DNA of 63,192 nt, filler included, from Globobulimina sp. (taxonomy: Eukaryota), in assembly GCA_003354225.1 (NCBI GenBank). It is 43 parts of 43 records of this genome, joined end to end, with 100 filler letters (N's around TTAATTAATTAA, not from the genome) between each part and the next. Parts side by side here need not be neighbours in the genome. Positions count along the whole stretch, not along the records: positions 50,054 to 51,424 come from PIVH01017775.1; 42 more parts are not named here. One strand, written 5' to 3'. The translations under genes and the position numbers were made by a program. Below the pieces are notes generated by a model that was not told the DNA's origin, searched no databases, and saw only the letters and a list, made by a program, of their open reading frames with translations. Of this stretch, positions 1 through 54,161 are shown one piece after another (within the stretch, counting starts at the first letter, position 1; each line of letters starts with the position of its first letter).

Positions 1-18
1 TCCCAAGACTTTGATAAA

Positions 19-1194
19 ATGAATAAAATTCAGGTCACCTCCTCCCCTGCATATAATATAAAAACATTACCAATAAACTTTGATGTCTTTCTCTCTCCGG
101 CAAATCCGACCATTCCTATGGACAATAAAATAACCATCGCATTTACGGATGGTTCGTGCGCTCCAAATCCAGGTAAAGGAGGAGCTGCGGCCTATATTCC
201 ATCCCAACCATCCCATTTATACCCATTTAAACAAATATATTACTTTAAAATACCAGTAACAATAACTACAGCGGAAATAGAAGCTGTCCATATAATTCTA
301 AATCATATAATAAGTACTAATATAAACAAACATATACATTACAAAATTTACATTGATAATCTCCCTCTCCTCCAATTTATTAATGGCCAAAACTTCCCTA
401 AATATAATGATACAAAACTATTAATTGAAAATATCTTTATAAAATTATTACAAATAATGCAAATATCCCCAAATGTATTTATATCTTTTATTAAAATAAA
501 ATCACATAATAATAACATTTTTAATGATGAAGCGGATCGAATGGCAAATTTTGCAGCAAAGCATGCGAAATATGACCAATCATTATTCCACCAAATATCC
601 TATAACACCACAATAACTCAGCTACATAAACAAATCTATTTTCATTGGAGCCAACAATGGAAAAATAGAAACACCAAACCTGATCAAGACAGCTACAGAA
701 TGTACCAAATGAACCCTTCACTTCATGGTAAATTCAGTAAAATAATTAAATATTTAAATAAAGATGAATCTGCAATAATGAATAGAATTATATCTGGTCA
801 CATTGAGTTGAATGCGTTCCTATTTAAACATAAATATAAAGATACAGATAAAAGTGATATAATCTCTCCAATTTGCCAACAATGCCAATCTAATAAAATA
901 GAAACAATATATCATTATTTCATCAAATGCCAAGCATATAACCATCAGCGTCAACGAATGATTGCCTCTCTTCGTAATACCTGGATAGGATTCAATGATG
1001 GAAATGGATTTAGTTTGAATGACTTATTCTTTCCATACACAATCAGAAGACCTCCAGACATTGACAGAGAGCTGAACGTGATGACGCAAGTGGAAATATG
1101 GAAAAACCTTCTTCAGTTCGTGAAAGAAACAAAAAGATTTGACTACCTGTACCAAGTGGACCTAGCAAACCTATCACCAATACTATTGGATTAA
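19..1194 (+). mobile_element. 3' part of a non-LTR retrotransposon ORF2: RNase H domain plus C-terminal CCHC zinc knuckle
   Basis: RNase H motifs FTDGS, AEIEAV, YIDN, KSH..NDEADRMA, then RIISGH and C-x2-C...ETIYHYFIKC. A short 3' UTR ends in an A run at the contig end. Confidence 0.85.
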
Positions 1195-3412: not shown

Positions 3413-4319
3413 TCATTTTGGATATTGTTCGCAAGGAATATCATTTAACATATTATTGTTATCCGGCGCGCCACGAATCACTCCCCGTCGCCAAGAATTA
3501 TGTATTTGATAATTATATTGTTGTCCGGAGGCAACTCCCGTGCTATCATCGCGATGGAAGTCAATTTTAAATCGAGTCATCACAATCACATTAGATTTGC
3601 CATTGACCCATCCATTCTCAATGATTTCTTGATGTTCCTCCTTATATGGCACCCATTTAATACCCCCTTCGTCACAAAACCAATACCATTGCTCCCCTTT
3701 ACTTTTGCTTTTGGGTTTGTTTGAAGCCGGCGGATTGTCATAATTTGCTGCAGCATTCCCGCCTACATTGGCCATATTGGCATCGTTATCATTGTCGGGA
3801 GCTTCCTATGGTCGCCGTTGTGGGTTATATGTTGTGTTGCGTCTTTGCGTTGAAACGTATAGAAAATAATATTAATATACCTTGATATCATCGAAATTGA
3901 AATTATTTTCAATTCGGTGTCGATCCACGTTCTTTTTGGCCCACGCCGATAACTGCTTTTTTACCTTCGTATATTGCCCTGATTTTTTTCATATGTAGTT
4001 TGAAACTGTTTTTTTTGTTCATATGTAGTTTGAAATTTTATTTCCAGTTTGAAACTGAAATTTGTTCATTATTTCCAGTTTGAAACTGAAATTTTTTGCA
4101 TTTTTCAGTTTCAAACTAATTATTTCCAGTTTGAAACTGAAACGAAACTGAAGGTAATTACCTGTTTTTTGGTCAAATTGCTTGCATACTTCTTTAACAA
4201 TTGTTAGCCCGAAACCAGACGATTTTTTATCATTTGCGTTGCCTTGTTTTGCCACATGTTTCTCGATAAATTCCTTCCCATTAAAGCCCTTTTTATCGAA
4301 AAACTGAGTTAAATAATCT
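3413..4319 (-). CDS. WWE-domain protein, 3' part, spliced (introns 3979-4161 and 3806-3880)
   Basis: QWYWFCD...WVPY......IENGW...IDF...RRGVIRG. Removing both GT-AG introns gives a continuous frame KQFDQKTG|QYTKVKK...DDIK|EAPDND. Confidence 0.75.
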
Positions 4320-17673: not shown

Positions 17674-19045
17674 TTTTGGACGAGAATCAGTTATTGGAAG
17701 ATGTGGCAAAATGTAACATTTACAAAACTGAGAATTTCCCCGAAAAACACATCGTGCAAATCGGCCAAATATTTGTCTCAATTTTGAGACAGTGCATTAG
17801 TAAAACAACACAAAATCAGATATTGCCGTGGATCAAATTTTTTATGTTATTTAAAGTATTTCGACAAAAACCCCTCCGTTCAGGAAAAAAGCATATTGCT
17901 CGAATTGATGCGACGTTTAAACGAAAGTTACAAATGTTCAAAGACGGCAATATTTGGGAACTCTGGGAAGAAACTAAGAAAATGCAGAAAAAGTTAGAAA
18001 CAAATATGGAAAACAAAATGAATAAAATTAGCGAACAAAAACGCGTTGAAAATTATAAATTAAGCAAATGCGAAAAATATCTGAGATTAGGCTATGTTAA
18101 GAGAGCCAACGACGTTTTAAAGAGCCATGGGATCGCCAAGCTGACTGATTATAACAAGAATAAATTGAAAACAAAATTAAAATCTGGCAAAGTATTAACA
18201 AAAATAAAGTCACTCCGTACAGTCGAATTGGTAACAAACGAGCTGAGATTGAATACATTATTTATAAAATTGAACAAGTTGGCTTCCGGCGGCGTGAATA
18301 TATTAAATGTCAAAGTATTACAACAACTGTGGACGATTCGCAATGTAATTAAATTAACTGCGCCGTTAACAAAGTTTATTAATATGGTTATGAATGGTAA
18401 CGTGCCCGACGTCATAGGTCCTCATTTCTGGGGCGTTCGAGAGGTTTTATTGAATAAACCGATCAAAAAAGACGCTCCGGTCGGCACTAAACCAGATATT
18501 CGACCCGTTGGCATTTCAGATACATTGGCGAGATTGGCAGAGTCCGAAGCATGTAATATAAATAAATCAGAATTAAATAAACATATCGACCCCGCTCAAA
18601 TTGGCATTGGTGTTAAAGGCGGGGCCGAAGGCATGATCGAAATGCACCGTCGAGCTGGTTGGTTCATGCAACATTCGCGTGACTTCAAACCAGTAACAAA
18701 TCCACCCTCTGACGATGACATCGATATGGAATCCGAAAAGGACTCCGAATTTTATAGTTTGTTGCAAACGGACATTGAAAATTGCTTCAACTCAATCAAT
18801 AACGAAGAAGCATTGAAATTGTATGCCAAACACGTCCCAAATCTCTACCCTTTGATGTATAGTATGTATAAGCAACCAACTAAAATATATTTGGCTGACG
18901 GTACAGTTTTGTATCACTGCAATGGTGGCATTCAAGGCAGAATAACCTCCGGTTATAGTTTAGCTTTAATACAATACGAAATTGAGCTGAAAGTCAAAGA
19001 AAAATGCAAATCATATTTAAATAATTATAAAATAAATGGTCGATC
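17674..19045 (+). mobile_element. Non-LTR retrotransposon reverse transcriptase, CRE/SLACS-clade-like, internal fragment
   Basis: KPDIRPVGISDTLARL, QIGIGVKGGAE, LQTDIENCFNSI, GGIQG; truncated before the YxDD motif. Confidence 0.85.
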
Positions 19046-20310: not shown

Positions 20311-20678
20311 ATCATACTCAACATAGCTACATGCCCGCCAATTATACAGTTGGGATATTACAGTTGGGATTCATATTTGTTTTATCGATATTTCAATTCG
20401 AGCACTGTGTCGTGGCCATTTGCCTCTTTGAGTGATGCATTAAATCATTTGGTGATCAATACCACCAATGCGAGCAATGCATTCAATTCATTGGCGACAG
20501 TCATAACCACGGCGGACNNNNNNNNNNNNNNNNNNNNNNNNNNNNNNNNNNNNNNNNNNNNTTAATTAATTAANNNNNNNNNNNNNNNNNNNNNNNNNNN
20601 NNNNNNNNNNNNNNNNNATTCTATGGTGTGTTTGTACATGAAAAGATTCATATCAAATTCTCAGGAAACACATTAAAT

Positions 20679-21989
20679 CTACATTTTAATCTGGATTCTA
20701 TCTAAATGATGCTTGAACAAATGAACAATGTATCTGGGGGTTTTCGCATCTTTTTTATTCAATAAATGGTTTTCGAGCATATTTAATAGTTCTAATTTAG
20801 CGTCATTTGAAATATCAATTTCGTCACAATCCGATCCTTTCATCAATGTTAATAAAAAATGAATTGCCTGTAAATACTGAATATAATTCATCCATTTTCC
20901 ATCCGCAATGCTTTTTATTGTAACTATTTTTAATATAGAATCGCCGCCGAAAAATAAACATTCAGATTCATGAAATGCAGAGACACACTGACAGTCAAAA
21001 TAAAAACATTCAAAATGTTCATGCCTTGATAACTCTAAAATCATTCCGTCATTGGTTGCGAATGTTTGTGCAACGCCCATCTGTCACAAGAATTGAATTT
21101 ATGCCCAAAAACATGCAAATATAACATACATTTGTGGAGGTACTGACAGGCGCATTGAATCTGGCAATGAATTTATTAAATATGAAACTGGAACTAATTC
21201 CTCTGTATACTGTCTGTATTGATTCTTTTTCATCACTCATACATTCACCAAAGCACTGCACAGATTCACATAATAATTTGCTCCAAATTGCAAAGTCTGA
21301 GTTACGATTTGTAACTTGTTCATATGTTTCAGTTGTCTTTATTTTCCTAAATGTTGCACATAAAACATTGCACAATTCTGTGTAATCTGTGTACAGTTTG
21401 AGAGCTTCCAAATGCAGTAAAGATATCATTTCATTTTGTCCCACGCCAATATTATATAATTCATTCCCATTGGATTTAGGCAGATATTTTTTGGCTGTTT
21501 CAGTTCTCAACAAAAATTCACAATTTTCTTCTAATTCCTGCCATTGTGTCATCGTTAAATTAAATTGTTTATTTTGTGTTATTTCTTCTTTTAAACTTGA
21601 ATATTTTGCAGAATATAACAGTCATCGTTTTCATTCCAATATGTAAACTTATATCCAAAGTCATAGATATATACAGTGCAATTGTCATCCATTTTTGTTT
21701 CATTTTGGGGTTCTTCAATGTCTTCATCAATCATCAATATCATCAATATTATCATCTTTTATTCCTGCACACGACCGATCAGTATGTAATGCATTAACAT
21801 TTAATTGTTTTGCGATTAGTTTGTTTGATATCATCTCATTTTTTGCACCACAATTATTACCATCTCCTTCTAATAACAACTGTCCATCAATCTGTTGCAT
21901 CTCAGTGGGTGTTAATAGATGCAAATCAAACTCATGCACTATAAAACAATGTATATTGCTCAATAAATATAAAACAATCAGATAGTTAC
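20679..21989 (-). pseudogene. ADP-ribosyltransferase-fold family member 1 (intron 21081-21129; two upstream frameshifts)
   Basis: VYRGIS, NAPVSTS|, SAFHESECLFFGG. The 49-nt intron joins STSTN|MGVAQTFA. Frame changes near 21612 and 21730. Confidence 0.65.
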
Positions 21990-22229
21990 NNNNNNNNNNN
22001 NNNNNNNNNNNNNNNNNNNNNNNNNNNNNNNNNTTAATTAATTAANNNNNNNNNNNNNNNNNNNNNNNNNNNNNNNNNNNNNNNNNNNNCGGCCTGCGAA
22101 GGATTAGCAGCCATGTTCGAGGATGAGGGTGAACCCGAGCGCACATGGCGACCACGTGGCTTGGCTGATGCCTCTGAACCGAATACGTATCGGGAAACAA
22201 GACCAGCCGAGGATAGACCCAGGCGGAGT

Positions 22230-22470
22230 TTAGCGACTGATTTGTCTGCCATCAGGCATTTTGGTGCGCCTAAGAAAACCGCTACGCAAATTGCATTTCA
22301 CCACACTTGCACCTTCGAAGTCCGCTCGCTCTAAAAAGGCCCCTCTAAAATTTGTATTTTCAATATGGGCATCGATGAACTTGGCTCTTTTTAATTTCGC
22401 ACCGGAAAAGTTAACCTTCTCCAACTTCGCACCGCTAAAATCTGCGCCTTCTAAACTAGTATGACTAAAA
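22230..22470 (-). CDS. Bacterial-type pentapeptide-repeat protein C-terminus, joined in frame to the Patched fragment
   Basis: ADFSG AKLEK VNFSG AKLKR AKFID AHIEN TNFRG AFLER ADFEG...TKMPDG; downstream DNA is more GC-rich. Confidence 0.75.
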
Positions 22471-23461
22471 TCCACATCAATAAATACGATTTGTATCTTT
22501 TCAATCACCGAACCCGACCATGCCTCCTCCGTTAAATCATAATAGGTCATCGAATAGCTGTCGTCGAGAAGGAACAAGCGCATATCCGATGAGGTTTCAA
22601 TTTTTGTTCCAAAATATGCAGAAACTCCAATCAATGCAATAAACACAACAATAACACACATTCTACCAACAAAACTCCTCAATACAGCAACGAACGTATA
22701 TTCTAAAACCCAATCCAATGAAAAACGTTTTGCAGACTGATGTATATCACTCTCATCGGTTTCGTTTTGATCCGCATCTTCTTCCACGGCTTGATGCGTA
22801 ATACACGGACAGCAAAAACTCCTATTTCGTTGTATCCGCTTATTATCATAAACCAATAATGGCACAAACAACAAAAATTGAAGCAAATAGTTACCGAGAA
22901 ATGAAAACGCCGCATAAAAACAAAAATATTCCAATCCCGGTAAGTCAGTAACGGTCCCTGCAAAAAATGCAATAATCGAACAAAATGAAGTCAACGTAAC
23001 TGCCACACCGCAATGTTTCAACGCCTTTCCTAACTGTTTCGCAGTAAATTGTTCATCGCTGTTTGCCATTTTTGTATGATTCACAGTGTCAACAATAATT
23101 ATCATATTATCCACACCTACGCCCAATAAAAGAAAGGGTACAACAAACACCAATGTGGAAAATTTGTTATCTAAATATGCACCGATACCAAACCCGAATA
23201 TCAACGCACAAAGTAACACAAATATCTGTATATTAATATATAATTTGAATTATATTTCTATTTTATATATTACGTAACTGAAGAACTTGCTAATAATGCC
23301 CTCATTCGTACACAGGAACCCAATGAGCCCAACGTCAACTGCACATAAACCAACATGACTCCAAAAGCAATGAGAAACATTTGGGCATCTCCTACCATGG
23401 TCGCTAACATCTCATCTTCGGTACCTATGGTGGAATAATATGCAGTGTCGAATTCAATATA
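22470..23461 (-). CDS. Patched/NPC1-family sterol-sensing-domain membrane protein fragment (intron about 23226-23278)
   Basis: PFLLLGVGVDNMIII, GVAVTLTS.CSIIAF..G, PGLEYFC.YAA, LQFLLFVPLLVYD.KR. Confidence 0.85.
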
Positions 23462-24717: not shown

Positions 24718-25787
24718 TACTATTCTTATTTCAATTATTTTACTAAATTTTTATTTATATTTTTTCAATCTTTTTTTTGCTTTGCTTTTTTTTGTTTTTG
24801 CTTTGTTTTGTTTTTTTTGTTTTAATTTTATTTATCATTCCCTTTTTGTCTCATGAAGTGCTTGTTATCACCATGTCTTATGTACTCTTGTATGAAAGAG
24901 CAAATTTTAGTTAAATCGTCGAACTCATTTAGTNNNNNNNNNNNNNNNNNNNNNNNNNNNNNNNNNNNNNNNNNNNNTTAATTAATTAANNNNNNNNNNN
25001 NNNNNNNNNNNNNNNNNNNNNNNNNNNNNNNNNTGCGGTCGAAAATGTTCAGGTAAAATAGATTTCTTTTCAATTTATATTTTATAATAGATTTATATGT
25101 ATTTCATTCAAATTTGTGTTACAAAATCACAGGGAAAACAGAAAAATTGGCTCGCATTGTTGCTAAATGTTGAGTAAATGTTTCGCACCAAAACAATTCT
25201 GGTTGTTTTGCTAAATGTTCCGAAATTTGTTCAGATCATAACAAAAACAAAACATTTATGTAAACATTGTGCGTTGTTTTGAATCGAAACAATTTCTGAA
25301 CAAGCACAGAACAATTACAGTTGTTCTGCTATTATGGTAAAAGGAAGTTCACAAAATTCGAAATTTACTATACAAATATGAATATTAACAATACAATTTT
25401 TTGTATCAATGTAACATAGTTACTACTGGAAATGGACAGGATCAGGTTATTCCCATGCACGACATGTCTACCCGCGAGAGCCAGTTTTGGGACAAAAGAA
25501 ACAAAGCCAAAATCCAAAAAAGTCCAAATTCAAACATTGATGTTTTTTGGAAAATTTAACTTAGAGCCATAATTGAACTTATTTCATTTTAAACAGAAAT
25601 TATTCAATTCAACTATTCAAAAACTTCGAACTATCGCATAATTCAGGAATTGCTCATGCTATTGGCTTGATATTTTAACACAAAAAACTTGTCGAGAAGA
25701 AGTGGAGAAGTTCAAGGAAAAATCTTAACCAAATCAGTTGAATGTTGGCTAACCTACGTTATAAGTTTTGCTTTGGGTGTCATATTA

Positions 25788-25940
25788 GGGATCATTCAAA
25801 AACAATGTTGTCCATGCAGGGTAGGGTTCAGCCAAAAGACAACAGGTAAAACAGGGCAAAAACACGATATTTTTGACAACAAAGGTGGTTAGGGGTCTAA
25901 ATTTGGCATTTTTCTGTTAATGTCGTTTTTGAATTGTCCC
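25788..25940. mobile_element. PIF/Harbinger (Tourist)-like MITE, 153 bp
   Basis: Termini GGGATCATTCAAAAAC and reverse complement GGGACAATTCAAAAAC match at 14/16; TTA flanks both sides (25785-25787, 25941-25943). Confidence 0.6.
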
Positions 25941-26505
25941 TTAAATGAGACATATATGTATATCGAAGTTGCAGGTATAGTGCAAAGAACAGTTTGCAGA
26001 AAAATTGGAGAAAAAACAGTCAGGGCCATTGCGATATATATGGTACTTGATAGTGTTGGAACGTGTATACTGTAGAGGTGTGCATGAAACAGTAGCTAAT
26101 TATAACTCACACACTGGTCACCGCATTTGACCAGTGTGTATTTTATATTATAGAATGGACAGTAGACTGCTTGATGGTTAACAACAATTAATTCCATCTT
26201 CTATCCAGTCATTATGTAATGAGTAGTAATGTCATTAGTCAATGTTCTATACACACCTCTATAATACACGTTCCATCTCTAGTACTTGATCGATACACGG
26301 ACCTGGCATACATGATATGGTACCCTTTCGCGCCAAGTGGTATCATATTTGGTACCAGAACCATGCATGGACCCAGTACCATATGGTACCCTTTCATAAC
26401 TCAAANNNNNNNNNNNNNNNNNNNNNNNNNNNNNNNNNNNNNNNNNNNNTTAATTAATTAANNNNNNNNNNNNNNNNNNNNNNNNNNNNNNNNNNNNNNN
26501 NNNNN

Positions 26506-27977: not shown

Positions 27978-28155
27978 AATCTTTTTTTGAATCAAGAAAT
28001 TGCATAGTATCGATTACAATTTCAACTTTAAATCTTTTTTTCCCTTCCTGGTCTTCCCATCTCTTTTGTCTCAATTTTCCTTCAATAGCAATTTTACTGC
28101 CTTTATGACAATATTGAGCTATGATCTCAGCAAGTTTCGACCATGCTATGCAGTC
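27978..28155 (-). CDS. ssb: Bacterial single-stranded DNA-binding protein fragment
   Basis: FDCIAWSKLAEIIAQYCHKGSKIAIEGKLRQKRWEDQEGKKRFKVEIVIDTMQFLD is the second half of the SSB OB fold. Confidence 0.9.
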
Positions 28156-29349
28156 AAAATACTGTGCTGCAGTTTTATCATTTTGAATAGTTATTACTAT
28201 CCCATCCCCACTCTCTTGCGACGCAAACATAACTGCTGTTTCATAACTTAATGTCGTAGAACAAGGTCCACAAAATCGTTCTCGCACACCTTTAAACACC
28301 ATACACCGTGCAATACCGTGATAAAACTTGGAAATTTGGGAAAATGTCAACGTTGTACCAAAACACTCCACTGTTTCGCGCAAATAACGCCCCCAATGTG
28401 CATACACAGAATGCCTTTGTTTCAATGCTTCATCGCTCTCTGTTTCCGATAATCTCCTAAATGTAGCTGAAAATGCTGCTGATAGTTGCGTAAAATTACA
28501 ATACAACAACAATGATAATATATGTTTGACACTAATAGTTGAACCTACAGCCACATCATAGACAGCTTCCCATTTCGGGTTTGCACCGAGAACATTATGT
28601 TTGTTTGTATCGTGTTTCCATTTTGCTTTAATTTGTGTGTTCTTCAACTCAAATAAAGATATTTTTGTCAATCCATTTAATACTTCTTCTTTCATTGATT
28701 TATATTTTGGATGAATGTACCAAGACGAATACGTATAGTTCCTCCCACCGTCAATATCAATGTTTCCATCCTCGGGATAAATACCTAGCAAAGTCATGCT
28801 TTTGTTTGTATTATTTTTAAAATATGAATGATAATAATATCTAACCCCTGGAGAATACGTCGAATATTCTGAATTTTTGTTTTCTTCTTTTTTTGCTTCA
28901 TTGGTTGGGACTGATTTTGTCTTAATGTGTGTCACAAATTTGCTCCAACGATTGGGTCCATACAAGTTTCGCAGTTTTTTATTTTTGTGCTGGAGGTTAC
29001 AAATAATTTGCTTTATATTTTTATTTTGATGCAGGAAACGCAAACCTAAATCCGTAAGATGGTATTTATGACAATGTAATTGGTCTAACATTTGACATAT
29101 AACAATGGACCGATCAGATGTACATTGATGATATAAATTGGTTCTGTTTTTCAGGTTATTGTCATATTTATTTTTATCACGAAATATACGTTGAATAAAA
29201 TTACATTTTTGTAAATCACATCGATTAACATTTTGCTGAAAAGGAACACTTTCATCTTGAACATATTTAATAAAATCAGCGATAAAATAATTGATTTTTT
29301 TATTCGGATAAAGTTTGGATATTACACTAAATAAATCATTATCTTTTGT
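28150..29349 (-). CDS. ADP-ribosyltransferase-fold family member 2 (truncated by a chimeric junction before ExE)
   Basis: PKYKSMKEE, LLLYCNFT.LS..FS.TFRR, WGRYLRETVECFG, FYHGI, GPCSTT, GIVITI, YFDC; frame open from the contig end. Confidence 0.7.
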
Positions 29350-30921: not shown

Positions 30922-32288
30922 GAGATGCAGATATTTTAAATCCAAACTTTTGTTTATTTCCAGTATTCCAATTAAAATATTCAAATATGAACTCATTCAA
31001 ACAGATAATGATAAAAGTGAATGATAACAATGATATTCAAAATAAACAATATATAAATGAATTGATACACAGAGTAAAAACATTATTTTTATCAGAAATT
31101 GGAGCAAATGAATATTTTCATATTATTGATGCTTTTGGTTTGCTTGAAAATATAAATGAAATGTTGAGTGAATATAAAAATATGTTAATATGTGGAATTA
31201 AGCTAAATAATAATATTTTAATCTGTTTATTACATCATTTAATTCGTAATGGAGAAGCTCAAAATGTTGCTGGTATTTGGAATGATGTAATCAAACAAAA
31301 TATAATTATAAATTCATTGGCATTTCAATCATTAATATTATGTGTGAATAGATCGAGAAATGTGGATAATAATAATATATTGCTCACGATGTGGAATTTT
31401 ATTGTCAATCAACAAAAATTGAAACCAAATTTGCATTGTTATTGTTTGGCTGTTTTATCATTTTCAAAATATTCTGATGTGGAAAATCGTAATATGGCAA
31501 AGCAATTATTGTCTGATTTAGAATCAAATAAAGAAATGATGTGTTTGTTAGCCGCAAATAATTTACAATTGATTCAAATACTAAACAGCTATGGAAATCT
31601 GAATGAAGTTAATAAAATGTGGTCATTTTATAACGATTATATTGAAAAATGGAACAATGGCAAGCATGATATTTATGCATTGATAGTTTGTGCCTCGAGC
31701 GAAATATCCAAACATGAATTGAATGATATTTTAAATATTATCGATAATGACAAATATTTTAATTTGAATAAAGATTTGTCCATTGATCAATTGATTGTGT
31801 TCCATCGCATTGCAGTAAAATGCAATCATACAATACAAGAAAAACTATGGTCCATTTTACAGCGCAAAGCGGAAAAAGAAAAGATAAAAACAAATGTTTT
31901 CTCTTTTTTTGAATTAAATGGAAAACGATATTCAATCTCCACAGGGTATGAGATTGGTGGCTGTTTATTCAATTCCAATGACAGAGTCGACGCTTTGATA
32001 AAAGAGATTGGATATGATATAAATACATCGGATTGCACAGAATTATCATCAGAAATTGCAAAGAAAAAACATTTAAAAAGTCATTCGGAAAAGAAAGCAT
32101 TGGCCATATTATTAAAACAAGAACAAAACACTAAAGAGATAAAAATCAAAGTCTCGAAGAAAATGTGTATAGATTGTCATCAATTCTTTTGCCAAGTATC
32201 TAAAATCTACAATCAACACAATATTCAATGTGTAGACCCGAAAGGCATCCATCTCTTCAAAAATGGAATTTGCTGTTTGTGCAATTAA
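30922..32288 (+). CDS. Pentatricopeptide-repeat protein with C-terminal DYW-type cytidine deaminase domain (5' truncated)
   Basis: About 35-aa helical repeats (FHIIDAFG....INEM..EYKNM...GIKLN; KPNLHCYCLAV.SFSK; ILNSYGNLNEVNKMW.FY), then S.FELNGK, GY, HSEKKALA, KVSKKMCIDCH.FF..VS, D.KGIHLFKNGIC. Confidence 0.88.
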
Positions 32289-35337: not shown

Positions 35338-36317
35338 ATTAAAATAGCGCATGCTATGCTTGATGTTAAACAGTACGAACTAACAGGTTACAGTATAAAT
35401 TATATAACATTAAAATATATGAATAATAAAACCTATAACATTTTTTTACTAACTAGGCCATGAAAAATATTGTTTGACCGGGGAGCAAATGGAAGGGAAA
35501 TTGTTGGATTTTAATGGAAACGAAATCAAACATTTCAATAAAAATGAAGCATTAATAGTGAGTTTGTCTGAGATATTGTTAGCATCAGGAACAGATTTAT
35601 CACATTTAAGGTATAGTATTATCCATAATATACCAAATTGCATTAAAATGATATTATTTAAGTGATGCAGTGGATAATAATGGGAGCATTTATTCGGGTG
35701 AGAGTATGAGACATAGTGGAATATTATTAATGGTGTTAATAAATTATGACAACACATATTCGACACATAAAAGAAATCCCAAATATACAATGAAAGTGGT
35801 AAGAATTGAACGTGCGGAATACAAAGTAACTGAGACAATATATTATAATCAAACATATCGAATGACGCGGGATCGGCATGGTGTTTATATATCATTTGTT
35901 CAGGGAGGAAGAATTGGAAAATTTAATTTTCAAACTTCATTAATATCATTAGTGGCTAGTTTGGGTTTATTAGGAATAAGTACATTGATTATTGATAGTT
36001 TAATGATACATTGTTGCAAGAAAAAGAAAAGTTATTTTAATGATAAATATAATTACACCAAAGAATATGCAAAGGATCCAAGTTTGAGAAATCTGACACA
36101 TAGAAAACATAAAAGTACCACTGATGATGATGAAAATTTATTTGAACCAGGTGGTGGTGGTGGTGATGATGATGATGATTATGATGAATTGTCAAAGAGA
36201 GCATATTATGCGATAAATGCTCCTGTAGATGATAATGACAATAATATGCCACCAGTAACAAGTAATTATAATGTTGGTAATATGTATGGTAACAACGCCA
36301 ATAAATTTCGCATGTGA
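35338..36317 (+). CDS. P2X-type ATP-gated ion channel, C-terminal half (introns 35387-35456, 35611-35662)
   Basis: RHSGILLMVLINYDN, RDRHGVYISFVQGGRIGKFNF...LISLVASLGLLGISTLIID (pre-TM2 and TM2). Both introns restore the frame. Confidence 0.85.
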
Positions 36318-36855
36318 CAATCATTGCATTGTTTTTGAATAACTCATAAAAATTATTGAAACAATTGTTTTCCATCATGTGCAAGGATAAGAATTGATGG
36401 TAGTTTTTAAATCAAGGGCCATTTGAGATTATTTTTGTGATAAAACTCGTCATCGTTTTGTTGTGAAAAATAAACGTTTCTGTCACTGTCAACATGCTCA
36501 TTCTTGATAGGAATTTCTCTGCGTAAATGCGGATCGACCCATCCAACATCGGACTTATAAATTCGTTTCCGCTCATTTCCTAATTTCCGAATGGTTGCAC
36601 TTAATCTCCGAAACGATAAATCACGTTTCAAAACTCCTTTGTTTTGCGGGAGAAACACTAATTTATGTTTGGTTATTCCATGCCTCCATTTGTAGCGACA
36701 GTCATCTTTNNNNNNNNNNNNNNNNNNNNNNNNNNNNNNNNNNNNNNNNNNNNTTAATTAATTAANNNNNNNNNNNNNNNNNNNNNNNNNNNNNNNNNNN
36801 NNNNNNNNNGTCACCCACTCACCCACTCACCCACATAATTTTAATAAAACCGCAA

Positions 36856-37206
36856 TTGCAAAAATCCGATGCAGCAATAAAATACATTATAAAATCCGAA
36901 ATTATAACCTTAAAAAGATTATTAGCAACGCATAAAAATGTGCCAATGGTGAAAGGTTTTGATATATCGCAAGAAACAAACGTCTGTTGCTTAAAATTAC
37001 CAATTTGTGGACATTTGTTAAGTCCGCGGAGTTTATATGAATATGGTTTAGCACAATTTATAAACCGGGAAGAAAAAATAAAATGTCCACATACCAACAC
37101 CGCAACAAATCATACATTATGTGATATAAAAAAGCAAGCAGCAAATAAAAAGTTGTACAAATGTATATGTATAATATTATCAAAACAACAAATCACCAAC
37201 AAATAA
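36856..37206 (+). CDS. Possible degenerate RING/RBR-like fragment
   Basis: LPICGH....SL..Y........IKCP. Confidence 0.35.
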   Translation: MQKSDAAIKYIIKSEIITLKRLLATHKNVPMVKGFDISQETNVCCLKLPICGHLLSPRSLYEYGLAQFINREEKIKCPHTNTATNHTLCDIKKQAANKKLYKCICIILSKQQITNK

Positions 37207-37790
37207 TTTCAATACTATGACAATTGCCAATATTACGATAGAAACAATAACTGGTATTAACACTGTATTTATTTTCATCTCATATAATTTTGGATAAATA
37301 TCTTTTCGTTTGATTAAAGTTAACATATCGTCAAGAAATGGTATATTATTTGCAATCAAAGGTTGCATTTCTTGTATTTTCCCATCATCATCACTCTCCT
37401 CATCATTATTATTACAACATCGTATCACAAATTTCTGCATTTCAATGAATGATTCCTGTTTAATTTGCAATCCATTAAACTGATGAACTATAACCATAAC
37501 ACGTACTAAAGCAACCAAACAAATTATATTTAAAATAGAAACGCCATTAAATAATATGGATCGTAACGAATTGCCATCGATAAAAAACACGCGATATAAT
37601 ATAAACATGGTCAGCGATGATGTTATAATTAATATCCATAAAAGTGGCAATTCCTGTTCAGCAAAAAATAATTTCCCTTCAGACCCTAAAAACGATCGTA
37701 TTTCCAACCAACCCAAAATATTTGATTTCCGCTTTAATGATAAATATAAATGTTCCGGAAAATATTTACCTTCCATCTGTTCTGAATATG
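37180..37790 (-). CDS. Eukaryotic multi-pass membrane protein, C-terminal fragment
   Basis: Three hydrophobic helices; NILGWLEIRSFL. Confidence 0.55.
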
Positions 37791-37861
37791 AAACTTATAC
37801 CGGTTAGAAGCTGTCCCAGACCATCCACCGGTAGAACTTCATCCAGACCGTGTAGTGGTGC

Positions 37862-38045
37862 AAGCACTTGTCCTCCACCAATGTTATGTACAATAAGTGG
37901 TCTTTCACCATTAGGCGATTTTCTATCTACCACAATTCCTATGTGCGTTATGCCTCCACCCAGATTCCAGCAAACAATATCACCTGGCAAATAATCCTTC
38001 GCTAACTGAGACATCTCTTTTACCTGTCCAAAACGAGTAAAAAAG
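37862..38045 (-). CDS. Bacterial DUF1287-family protein fragment
   Basis: FFTRFG.......DYLPGDIVCWNLGGGITHIGIVVDRKS..GERPLIVHNIGGGQVL; both ends missing. Confidence 0.75.
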
Positions 38046-38056
38046 GTCCCGGACAT

Positions 38057-38181
38057 ATGCACGAAGAACGAGTTTTAGAGTTTCAATCCTATATAGAGAC
38101 ACATAGGGGATTAGCAAAATCCACTGTTAAGGAGTATGGGTATGACCTTAAATACTACTACCAATGGATTGAAAAAGAGAA
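38057..38181 (+). CDS. Bacterial tyrosine recombinase (XerC/D-like) N-terminal fragment (not in the ORF track)
   Basis: MHEERVLEFQSYIETHRGLAKSTVKEYGYDLKYYYQWIEKE fits F..Y....RGL...TV..Y..DL. Confidence 0.7.
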
Positions 38182-48582: not shown

Positions 48583-49073
48583 ATAAAATCTGAATTAGCA
48601 TCCATCAAAAAATTGGTGTAGATATTGTTATGACATACATTTTGTTTATGGAGTATCCACTCTGCTTGTTTTACTAACACGTCGAGCAAATGATAAGGAT
48701 CAACAGGCTTTATTAAGTATTTATCCACACCTATTTCAATAGCACGGATATAATACTCCTCAGCACTAAAAGCAGTTGTAACTATAATTGGCACTTCCTG
48801 ATCTATCGCCCGAATGCCCTCTGACATTTCAAGCCCATCCAGAAGAGGCATCTTTATATCAGTAAGCACAATATCCGGCTTATGCTTCTTAAAAAGCGCA
48901 AGACCTTCTTCGCCATTATAGGCATCATATAGAACGCCTACTTTCATCTTCAAAAAAAATGAACACAACTCATGGATACTTTCATCATCCTCAACATACA
49001 AAAGTGACATATTCTGTAATATTGATAGATCTAGATCTTTCTCACTCAGCTCTTTTTTCATAAGACCAAACAT
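48583..49073 (-). CDS. Bacterial response-regulator receiver-domain protein, N-terminal fragment
   Basis: LLYVEDD, PDIVLTDIKMPLLDGLEM, PIIVTTAFS, GVDKYLIKP. Confidence 0.92.
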
Positions 49074-49104
49074 CCCTATACTCTGTTATCAACCTGAAAC
49101 AATG

Positions 49105-49953
49105 GTGTTGTAACAATAAACATGATTTCCCAGTTCCTGTATCTCCGACAAGCACAAATTTTAATAAGTAATCATAGGAACTCACTTTTTGTTTTTCTCT
49201 CTGATTAACTTTTATCATTTCCATATCAGATTTATTTATGGAGTTTGTGTTTTTATCAATGAACTTAATTCGTTGATTGCAGTTAAATATTCTGAATTTT
49301 TTTGATAAATATTTATTAAATATTACGTGACAACGAATACGCACAAGATATAATGGAATATTTTTAGTTTCAATGAAGTTGGATACAATGTCGTTGTATA
49401 TATTATTTAGTAATATCTCTATTTTATTTTGTTGGAATTCATTTGCTATTTCACATAATAATGCAACCTGTGTTTCGTTTTCAACTCTGATGCATAAATA
49501 CCATGAACTGAGAAGGTTTTCATTATTTTGCAATTCCAGATTAATACAAATGAATTTCTGCTGTATTGGTGCAGAAGATAAGTGAAATGATATCAACCCA
49601 TCTAATTGGTATCCATTTGGAGGTATTATAGAATTAAAGATTGTTGCGGTGGAATGCTTATATGGTTGTGAGTGTAAAATAGATGATGTGTCTGCATCAC
49701 TGTCGTCATCGCAATAATAAACTATGATGTCATTTATCTTGACGAATCTTGCTATGACAGTGTTAATAAGCATCAGTAATGAAAGGATAATGCAAAATCT
49801 TCTAACAAAAACTATCTTTATTACTCAAAAGTCAACATAGAATATGGCTATTAATTATCCAGCTGCCAGTGCCGCATATTCGAATATTTCATTCTCCAAC
49901 CAATCATTTTGTTTCATCGACTAAACCCAAAATGTTATCTGTGTTATTATTAT
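49105..49953 (-). CDS. Eukaryotic protein with the start of a Rab-type GTPase domain, cut at a chimeric junction
   Basis: YDYLLKFVLVGDTGTGKSCLL (Rab G1 motif) follows a long unrelated N-terminal region; similarity stops abruptly after it. Confidence 0.7.
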
Positions 49954-50053: not shown

Positions 50054-51137
50054 CAACGAAATGTGTAGAATCAGTACAGAACAATTTGACTCACAAATTG
50101 TGGCAGCAAAGTTAGTGATTCATAGTGAATCAACACATACGGCAACAAAATGGAAAGCATGTAAAACCAGTCAAGCATACGGAATCACGCAAAATGATAG
50201 AATTTATATTGAAAATGTAGTTTGTATTCAATTTTTTACAAATCACTCTGAACTATGCAAACAATTTAGGACATCATACAGAAAAATAAAAAATGAAGAC
50301 ACTGAGGAATGTATCAGACAACGTCATATAAACAATTTTTATTGGTTTGGTAGATTCTTAATGTCCGCGGTTGCATTTTGGGGCAAAATTGCTAAAAAAA
50401 AACATAATTTTTTTCATGGATTGCAAAATAAATATGTATTTAATTCATTTTCTGCGGTATTTGAGATACCGACGTCGACCACCGATGATGTTACAACCAC
50501 ACAAAAATTCAATAACAGTGGAACAGGGATTACGTTGCAATTATCTCCGAAATATCAGACTGCAGATTTGCGATATCTTAATGTGTCGAGGTTGAGCAAA
50601 TTTGCTGATGAGAGGGAATATTTAATAGCTGGTGAGAGTATAATGGCGATTGTAAATATTTATACACCTTCCACCAATGCCTGGAGAGGACATGAAAAGT
50701 GTATGAAAGCAATTTTATATTTTGAGAGGATAACCGAACAGGATCGGCATACCAAAACTGATTATAATTACGGAGTTATTGCACATAATAAACAATGTTG
50801 GATTGGAATCCATAAAAATTATTTAGTTCCATTGCTGAAATATCAGATTGAACAACAAAATGATACGAAAAAACAAAATAACAATATTGGATCATATATT
50901 TATGAATTATTTAAACATTTTTGTGATAATAAAGCAAATATAAATTTAAGTTGTATTGATGAAGAAATTGAATATATGGACGAGACATTGATAACGATTT
51001 TGTTTAAAAAAACGGAGGATAGCGGATATAAAATGAGTGAAGGTATTATAATGTCAATATTTCCAAATGTAATACATTATGTGAATCAAGATAATATTCA
51101 GAAAACTATTGTGCCCGCAAAACTAACTTTGTCTTAG
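50054..51137 (+). CDS. ADP-ribosyltransferase-fold family member 3 (uninterrupted in this contig)
   Basis: IQFFTNHSELC..FRTSYRK, FYWFGRFL..AV.FWG, FFHGL, EIPTSTT, GITLQL, LSKFADEREYLIAG, YIYELFKHFC. Confidence 0.75.
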
Positions 51138-54094: not shown

Positions 54095-54161
54095 CTGTCG
54101 CCACAGGATTCGAACTTGTATCTTCTGGATTAATCCAGTGCTCTGCTTGAGCTATGCGACC
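54095..54161 (-). pseudogene. tRNA-derived element or tRNA pseudogene with a 4-nt anticodon loop
   Basis: GGTCGCA TAGCTC AAGCA GAGC A CTGGA TTAA TCCAG AAGAT ACAAG TTCGAAT CCTGT GGCGAC: acceptor, D, anticodon and T stems all pair; A-box-like and B-box (GTTCGAATCC) motifs present. Confidence 0.7.

Follow-up and report, generated by a model that had tools for sequence, protein, structure and literature searches.

The contig PIVH01017775.1 from Globobulimina sp. (GenBank assembly GCA_003354225.1) carries an open reading frame with motifs reminiscent of toxin-like ADP-ribosyltransferases (ARTs), which raises the question of whether a eukaryote encodes an expanded family of such proteins and, if so, in what capacity they might use NAD+. 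We addressed this in a window of 63,192 nucleotides, i.e. 43 unrelated contigs of 1371-1373 bp each, with a GC content of 27-41%, joined by artificial spacers. The frame in question (copy 1; 50055..51137, plus strand) encodes 360 residues, is open at its 5' end at the contig edge and has no frame break. It covers profile positions 306-633 of 739, with the helical ART subdomain, the ART beta core, a helical linker and the start of a C-terminal domain.

Detection of three highly diverged copies

Sequence searches initiated with copy 1 recovered a single relative, and those with a second copy on the contig beginning at 27978 (copy 2) recovered 17. A profile was then made from 16 of the database relatives, leaving out the window's own rows, and run against the 1285 six-frame open reading frames of the window. 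It matched 3 of the 43 contigs, namely that of copy 2 (E 7.3e-84), that of copy 1 (E 3.5e-39) and one beginning at 20618 (copy 3; E 1.7e-38 and 5.1e-11 for two exons), clear of the next best match (E 0.81) and of the best reversed-sequence control (E 0.24), in agreement with the earlier proposal of three copies in 43 unrelated contigs. No further contig with a member emerged when the window was searched with a full-length profile. Alignment of the three copies gave 22-28% identity over the core, so that the description of them as highly diverged is accurate. Of the motifs originally listed as collinear in all three, the aromatic-H/R-G and STS/STT signatures do recur throughout, but ExE is missing from copy 2. 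The window's 4 translations gave no ART match in Pfam (the gathering cut-off of PF01129 being 22.3); 0 of 20 sequences matched NCBIfam, PHROGs gave two single weak matches among 21, and PADLOC gave one weak CARF match, outside the core, among 7. Family members occupy 7% of the contigs (3/43; 95% interval 1.5-19%), which in such contigs corresponds to a rough 5-60 genes per Mb, an estimate that assumes a detectable length and comes from short contigs that need not mirror the genome.

The source of the window is an AT-rich eukaryote whose assembly is mixed with bacterial DNA and chimeras. Among 59 of the longer open reading frames, Pfam matches include genes of eukaryotic type (protein kinase, C2H2 fingers, P2X receptor, Patched, CAP-Gly, DYW deaminase, C2 and WWE) alongside fragments of bacterial type (YqeY, response regulator, DUF1287 and pentapeptide repeats), the latter often on one contig with eukaryotic genes. 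Bacterial-type sequence (YqeY, pentapeptide repeats, SSB, DUF1287 and response regulator) is mixed with eukaryotic-looking or unrelated sequence in contigs 1474-2846, 22090-23461, 27978-29349, 36810-38181 and 48583-49953. These are probably chimeras, and hence apparent fusions in the assembly have to be treated with care. Elsewhere in the window there are a protein of helical repeats with a DYW deaminase domain, of the RNA-editing type, at its end (30924-32285, plus strand; Pfam E 1.6e-11); a WWE domain, a possible ADP-ribose reader (3416-3805, minus strand; Pfam E 1.3e-5); an RNase H frame detected by Pfam (1-1191, plus strand); and a frame without a Pfam match that we take to resemble a retroelement reverse transcriptase (17676-19043, plus strand). 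A weak Rfam tRNA match (54095-54161, minus strand; 36 bits) is not found by ARAGORN, and contig 25034-26405 is the only one without any stop-free stretch of 90 codons. The window also holds a P2X receptor fragment (35652-36314, plus strand; Pfam E 8.3e-10), with no link to the ART family shown; mammalian ecto-ARTs are described as modifying P2X7.

Copy 2 (28135..29349, minus strand) comprises an N-terminal helical domain and the ART domain as far as a YFDC-x-x-W-S segment, and bears FYHG and PCSTT; within the helical domain lies a C-x4-C...H-x4-H motif (29059..29220, minus strand), a putative zinc site. The ExE attributed to this copy is absent, and the sequence after YFDC runs into the C-terminal half of an SSB (27979..28185, minus strand), which is in frame with copy 2 over a common FDC-x-x-W-S stretch. 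The family match ends at residue 405 and the SSB begins at about residue 389 (Pfam E 2.2e-19, residues 389-452), with 43-50% identity to plasmid ssb genes. Given that the two halves have FDC-x-x-W-S in common, the join is probably an assembly or amplification chimera; GC content fails to separate the halves (0.33 versus 0.32). A true ART-SSB fusion was rejected because the junction lies at the common motif, ExE is lost and other mixed contigs occur in the window.

Copy 3, on the minus strand, is interrupted. An exon with VYRG and PVSTS (21130..21612), which makes copy 3 the window's sole Arg-type copy, is followed, directly after the STS motif, by a phase 0 GT-AG intron of 49 nt (21081..21129; GTATGT...GACAG) and by a last exon with ESE as its ExE, the linker helices and a terminal TAG (20679..21080). 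This intron is the best of 30 GT-AG pairs, with 168 bits against 154 for the next and 128 for the unspliced form. The upstream part is spread over three reading frames: pieces in two further frames (21594..21987) hold an H-x4-H segment and a YDFG-x-K-F-x-Y-W segment, with breaks near 21730 and 21615. The former break could be an intron; at the latter (21617-21612) an intron was rejected, as a frameshift beats the sole frame-correcting GT-AG pair by about 22 bits. Copy 3 probably carries a frameshift, either as a pseudogene or through an error of assembly. In three relatives from the databases (P0018, P0019 and P0099) an intron-like read-through is seen directly behind P-x-S-T-T, near the position of the copy 3 intron, which suggests that other members have an intron near this site.

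Size and distribution of the family

When 1.84 billion representatives, clustered at 50% identity, were searched with a 666-position profile, 5496 clusters matched at E<=1e-3; of these, 4185 remained at 1e-10, and 2420 did so at 1e-30. The counts are inflated by fragments, by the presence of several species and by matches to flanking domains. Even so, the 4185 clusters at E<=1e-10 are far from a few copies and agree with the very large family that had been envisaged. The analyses below covered 156 relatives with 164 core domains and draw on the best 150 of about 5,500 matches, which lean towards the query. These are genuinely separate sequences, with a median identity of 33% over the core and a 95th percentile of 47%.

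The original prediction had concluded from the spliceosomal intron that the sequence is host-encoded. The intron itself stands on the scores given above, but the argument built on it depends on a copy that is probably broken. Encoding by a eukaryote is nonetheless indicated by the intron in conjunction with the database distribution. Of the 22 relatives with source labels 14 are from EukProt, the others being from ENA (6), NCBI (1) and JGI (1). Two scans of GTDB genomes, which reach close relatives only, gave 33 and 41 pattern matches with none confirmed, and neither phages nor plasmids gave a family match. In BFVD there was none at E<=0.001, viral ARTs appearing only as weak matches (best E 0.026).

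Fold and active site

AF2 models were generated for copy 1 residues 1-240 (pLDDT 81.6, pTM 0.80) and, from a 120-sequence alignment, for a full-length relative (pLDDT 90.2, pTM 0.89). The best fold match of both was ART2.2, with Z 11.8 (rmsd 3.3 over 166) for copy 1 and Z 13.1 (rmsd 3.4 over 192) for the full-length relative; in Foldseek the copy 1 model matched ART2.2 with E 4e-4 and a modest TM of 0.42-0.44. The next folds for copy 1 were XopAI (Z 10.6), HopU1 (10.4), an ART toxin/immunity pair (10.2) and ExoS (9.3), and for either model the top 21 of 21 rows are, going by their entry titles, ART-fold enzymes or their relatives. Structure prediction and fold search therefore agree with the proposed ART fold. 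The proposed affinity to cholera toxin found no support: against Z 10-13 for ART2.2, XopAI and HopU1, the copy 1 model matched LT weakly (Z 2.9 over 84 residues), diphtheria toxin with Z 5.0 and PARPs with at most 3.0. Given the scores for ART2.2 as against LT, the models point to the ART2/C3/ExoS branch rather than to the cholera toxin branch. At the sequence level solved ARTs in the PDB gave no meaningful match. PF01129 was found in 9 of the 156 relatives at E<=1e-3 and in 6 above the gathering cut-off; in an ESM Atlas feature search the ART domain scored 0.96 to PF01129 clusters.

In the copy 1 model the three residues of interest each lie on their own predicted strand and in the expected order, as judged by strand assignment. 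The first, His121 of FFHG (50415..50417, plus strand; predicted strand 119-123), takes the place of the Arg of R-S-E enzymes. Ser141 (codon at 50475) is part of P-T-S-T-T (50469..50483, plus strand; predicted strand 140-143). In E186-R-E188, the ExE of a DERE segment (50610..50618, plus strand), E188 opens predicted strand 188-192 and is presumed to be the catalytic Glu. The R-S-E triad originally assigned to the three copies hence has to be revised, as copies 1 and 2 have a strand-1 His and only copy 3 has Arg. Likewise, the strand-1 residue is His in 142 of 164 core domains and Arg in 6, and of the 159 domains that cover every site, 136 have the pattern H-S-E-x-E and 6 have R-S-E-x-E. The Ser of motif 2 (161/163, with no Tyr), E186 (158/159) and E188 (159/160) are almost fixed, and the +2 position of motif 2 is Thr (133/163) or Ser (28/163). 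Accordingly, of the features of the R-S-E clade S-x-S/T and the strand-5 Glu are present and the strand-1 Arg is not, and of those of the H-Y-E clade the strand-1 His is present and the motif-2 Tyr is not. As read from the alignment, the site combines the His of one ART clade with a Ser and an ExE that are typical of a different one. The strand-1 residue appears to have switched several times, since a FastTree tree (167/168 rows) requires 4 changes to account for the members with Arg, against a shuffled mean of 7.0.

The helical subdomain has a conserved Tyr (149/164) and Arg (151/164), which we presume may correspond to the C3-type alpha-3 NAD contacts. The near-invariance of the catalytic residues at 33% identity argues that the members are very probably active NAD-using enzymes. 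Counting against this is copy 1 itself, which departs from conserved helical residues in having N54 for His (150/162), F61 for Tyr (149/164) and S104 for Glu (158/164). The nearest relative of copy 1 is 73% identical, the next being the last ART domain of P0151 (37%). Two ART domains are seen in 8 of the 156 relatives (P0035, P0043, P0049, P0138, P0142, P0147, P0151 and P0157); in 6 of these 8 the upstream domain lacks the helical Arg, and two of those also lack ExE. In such proteins an upstream pseudo-enzyme may stand next to a working domain.

Domain architectures and predicted location

In full-length members the ART domain follows an N-terminal helical domain and is itself followed by a helical linker and a weakly LRR-like beta-alpha tail. 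C-x4-C...H-x4-H is present in all 104 rows spanning it (among 120), consistent with a candidate zinc site. The tail of the full-length model matched TIR1 (Z 5.7) and COI1 (Z 5.1) below the reliable range, and the C-terminal region 518-734 matches LRR proteins and methyltransferases alike (Z 4-5.7), with no clear fold; in the Atlas a full-length member scored no more than 0.77 to an LRR cluster.

A variable N-terminal extension of at least 100 residues precedes this arrangement in 87 of 139 proteins. Pfam detected PITH (25), PUB (16), MYND (8), UBA (6) and PH (2) on 138 matches, along with single cases of a PPPDE peptidase, TPR, C1, CAP-Gly, SAP and TLDc. With family-built profiles PITH, PUB or UBA was recovered in 53 of 156 relatives, i.e. 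about one third, and in 0 shuffled proteins; 95 of 156 had none of the four modules tested. None of the window copies, which are all cut at the 5' side, has a module. PITH is a proteasome-binding domain, PUB a p97-binding and UBA a ubiquitin-binding one; hence these modules would point the family at the ubiquitin-proteasome system, though they may merely be promiscuous domains in this lineage. On a FastTree tree with Pfam labels, module bearers are confined mostly to one portion (24 changes versus 39 shuffled), within which PITH and PUB alternate near-randomly (10 changes versus 12.3 shuffled, a value equally low in 16 of 200 shuffles); the 8 MYND cases all lie elsewhere. This pattern suggests that modules are repeatedly exchanged or lost, with losses or mispredicted starts being possible sources of the changes.

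By a crude hydropathy test only 6 of 156 relatives have a signal-peptide-like start and 8 of 156 a TM-like stretch; an MG start with a Cys nearby was seen in 10 of 156. The scarcity of signal-peptide-like starts gives the family a cytosolic look.

Functional interpretation

Our best reading, a tentative one, is that the family is host-encoded, has undergone a huge expansion within a single protist group and consists of cytosolic arginine-directed mono-ADP-ribosyltransferases docked on hubs of the ubiquitin-proteasome system, with a role in defense or surveillance. NAD+ would be bound in the usual cleft, with His filling the strand-1 place as it does in PARPs, and the last Glu would catalyze. 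E-x-E is the motif rule of arginine-specific ARTs, and its presence points to arginine as the probable acceptor residue. Each paralog would be docked by its N-terminal module, on the proteasome via PITH, on p97 via PUB and on ubiquitin via UBA, or at the membrane by means of PH/C1 or N-acylation, and the flanking domains would gate the activity or select the substrate. The scale of the family and the shuffling of its modules suggest that the purpose might be intracellular defense, in which proteins are marked or disabled at disposal hubs that parasites or ingested microbes attack. PITH, PUB and UBA name testable partners, through which genes native to a eukaryote would connect protein quality control with the ADP-ribosylation of arginine. 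A bolder and unlikely version is an immune-like system of one protist lineage, in which exchangeable PITH, PUB and UBA modules place thousands of H-S-E ARTs at the proteasome, at p97 and on chains of ubiquitin, where ubiquitin itself or proteins of the ubiquitin system would be ADP-ribosylated. If true, it would be the host's own equivalent of Legionella SidE chemistry, and would parallel plant NLRs with integrated domains. Little is known of immunity in such protists.

The strongest competitor is a housekeeping modification code, in which the members would be regulatory writers of ADP-ribose, comparable to a kinase family, that steer protein turnover and the cytoskeleton. Deep divergence combined with strict conservation of the active site would be expected of such a code, its modules are ordinary cytosolic adaptors, and eukaryotes are described as having recruited toxin ARTs several times as protein modifiers (PMC3417536). 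Yet the thousands of divergent clusters, the frequent change of modules and the occurrence of a probably broken copy among three would better fit birth-and-death conflict families, leaving this a possible but somewhat unlikely explanation.

The constancy of the ExE bears on a second alternative, namely that triggered members are NAD+ glycohydrolases or makers of messengers, which drain NAD+ or release ADP-ribose in the manner of TIR domains and use no protein acceptor. The replacement of Arg by His could alter the handling of NAD+, some ART2-fold enzymes are mainly NADases, and a variable sensor with a constant enzyme and an LRR-like tail (its Z lying below the reliable range) recalls immune receptors. 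In ART1/ExoS-type enzymes, however, the first Glu of ExE serves the acceptor arginine, and both Glu residues are retained here (158/159 and 159/160); we consider this alternative unlikely.

The genes could also be selfish cargo amplified with mobile elements, for which AACRNL in fish offers a precedent (PMC12957317) and with which one probably broken copy would be compatible. Against this, the copies are old and divergent (95th percentile of identity 47%) and intron-bearing, the three contigs have no transposase frame, although 1.37 kb gives little context, and the AACRNL domain is diphtheria-toxin-like, a fold matched here only with Z 5.0; it is thus improbable. Bacterial effectors are among the nearest folds (XopAI, HopU1 and ExoS/T), as exported toxins directed against prey or competitors might show, but 150 of 156 relatives have no signal-peptide-like start by our crude test, the modules are cytosolic and Pfam scans revealed no B-subunit or delivery domain, making export highly improbable. 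Least probable of all is an origin in a symbiont or a giant virus, or a family of pseudo-enzymes without activity: several contigs do look like eukaryote-bacterium chimeras and BFVD holds viral ARTs, if weakly matched (best E 0.026), but the spliceosomal intron, the EukProt sources, the eukaryotic modules, the absence of any relative among the GTDB genomes, phages and plasmids searched and the near-invariant catalytic residues stand against this reading.

Comparison with known systems

The best fold match comes from the vertebrate ecto-ARTs (ART2.2, ART1 and ART5; PF01129), which also resemble the family in their helical subdomain and beta core, S-x-S/T and ExE; the family differs in its strand-1 His, in its few signal-peptide-like starts, in being multi-domain and apparently cytosolic, and in its thousands of clusters. 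The C3/ExoS-type effectors (XopAI, HopU1, Tre1-type pairs, ExoS/T and Vis) are alike in fold branch (Z 8-11) and ExE. These bacterial effectors are R-S-E enzymes, and the family is set apart from them by 9-20% identity with no sequence-level match, by being eukaryote-encoded, by introns and by the lack of a delivery domain. The mART of Legionella SidE/SdeC ADP-ribosylates ubiquitin, and resembles the family in this ubiquitin link and in a middling ART fold match (Z 6.0-7.8, only the ART region aligning); the phosphodiesterase domain that is a feature of SidE was found in neither the Pfam scans nor the fold matches of the relatives. With the H-Y-E clade of PARPs and diphtheria toxin the family has the aromatic-His-Gly on strand 1 and the final Glu in common, but it has Ser-Thr-Thr instead of Tyr, and its fold matches reach at most Z 5.0 for diphtheria toxin and 3.0 for PARPs. 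Uncharacterized rotifer and haptophyte clusters of PF01129/PF03496 in the ESM Atlas score 0.96, with 179-186 of 256 features in common; their representatives are only about 200 aa long and the likeness rests on the common domain.

AACRN/AACRNL are likewise toxin-fold ARTs multiplied in free-living eukaryotes, with a variable N-terminal header and a link to the ubiquitin pathway, but have a diphtheria-toxin-like domain, a UBL header and animal hosts (PMC12957317). No Pfam match to a ubiquitin-like domain was found in the 156 relatives, so that the AACRN/Crinkler header is absent. The ART clades described in the sources consulted are H-H-h, H-Y-E and R-S-E (PMC7955679, PMC3482391). PF01129 accounts for 4 human genes, of which ART3 and ART4 are also reported to deviate from the triad (PMC7955679), and by analogy a descent from the R-S-E clade is possible for the present family. 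The parts consulted of PMC4245714 cover only PARPs of Rhizaria, and those of a Legionella ART survey (bioRxiv 10.1101/2024.07.30.605764) contain no H-S-E family. The proposal that the family is undescribed accordingly holds for the literature searched, in which we found no description of it or of an "H-S-E" ART (listings and abstract starts).

At a rough 5-60 copies per Mb in contigs of this kind, as against the four human PF01129 genes, this protist would be an extreme user of mono-ADP-ribosylation, and the combination of an ART2/C3 fold, a fixed H-S-E(xE) and natural Arg members of about four origins would amount to a natural test of the role of the strand-1 residue. The recruitment and multiplication of toxin ARTs by eukaryotes is a known theme (PMC3417536, PMC12957317). 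What is new, as judged from sequence comparisons, is the H-S-E site, the scale and the ubiquitin-proteasome modules: the ExE is of the arginine type, yet most members lack the strand-1 Arg, so the family is not filed with the R-S-E clade.
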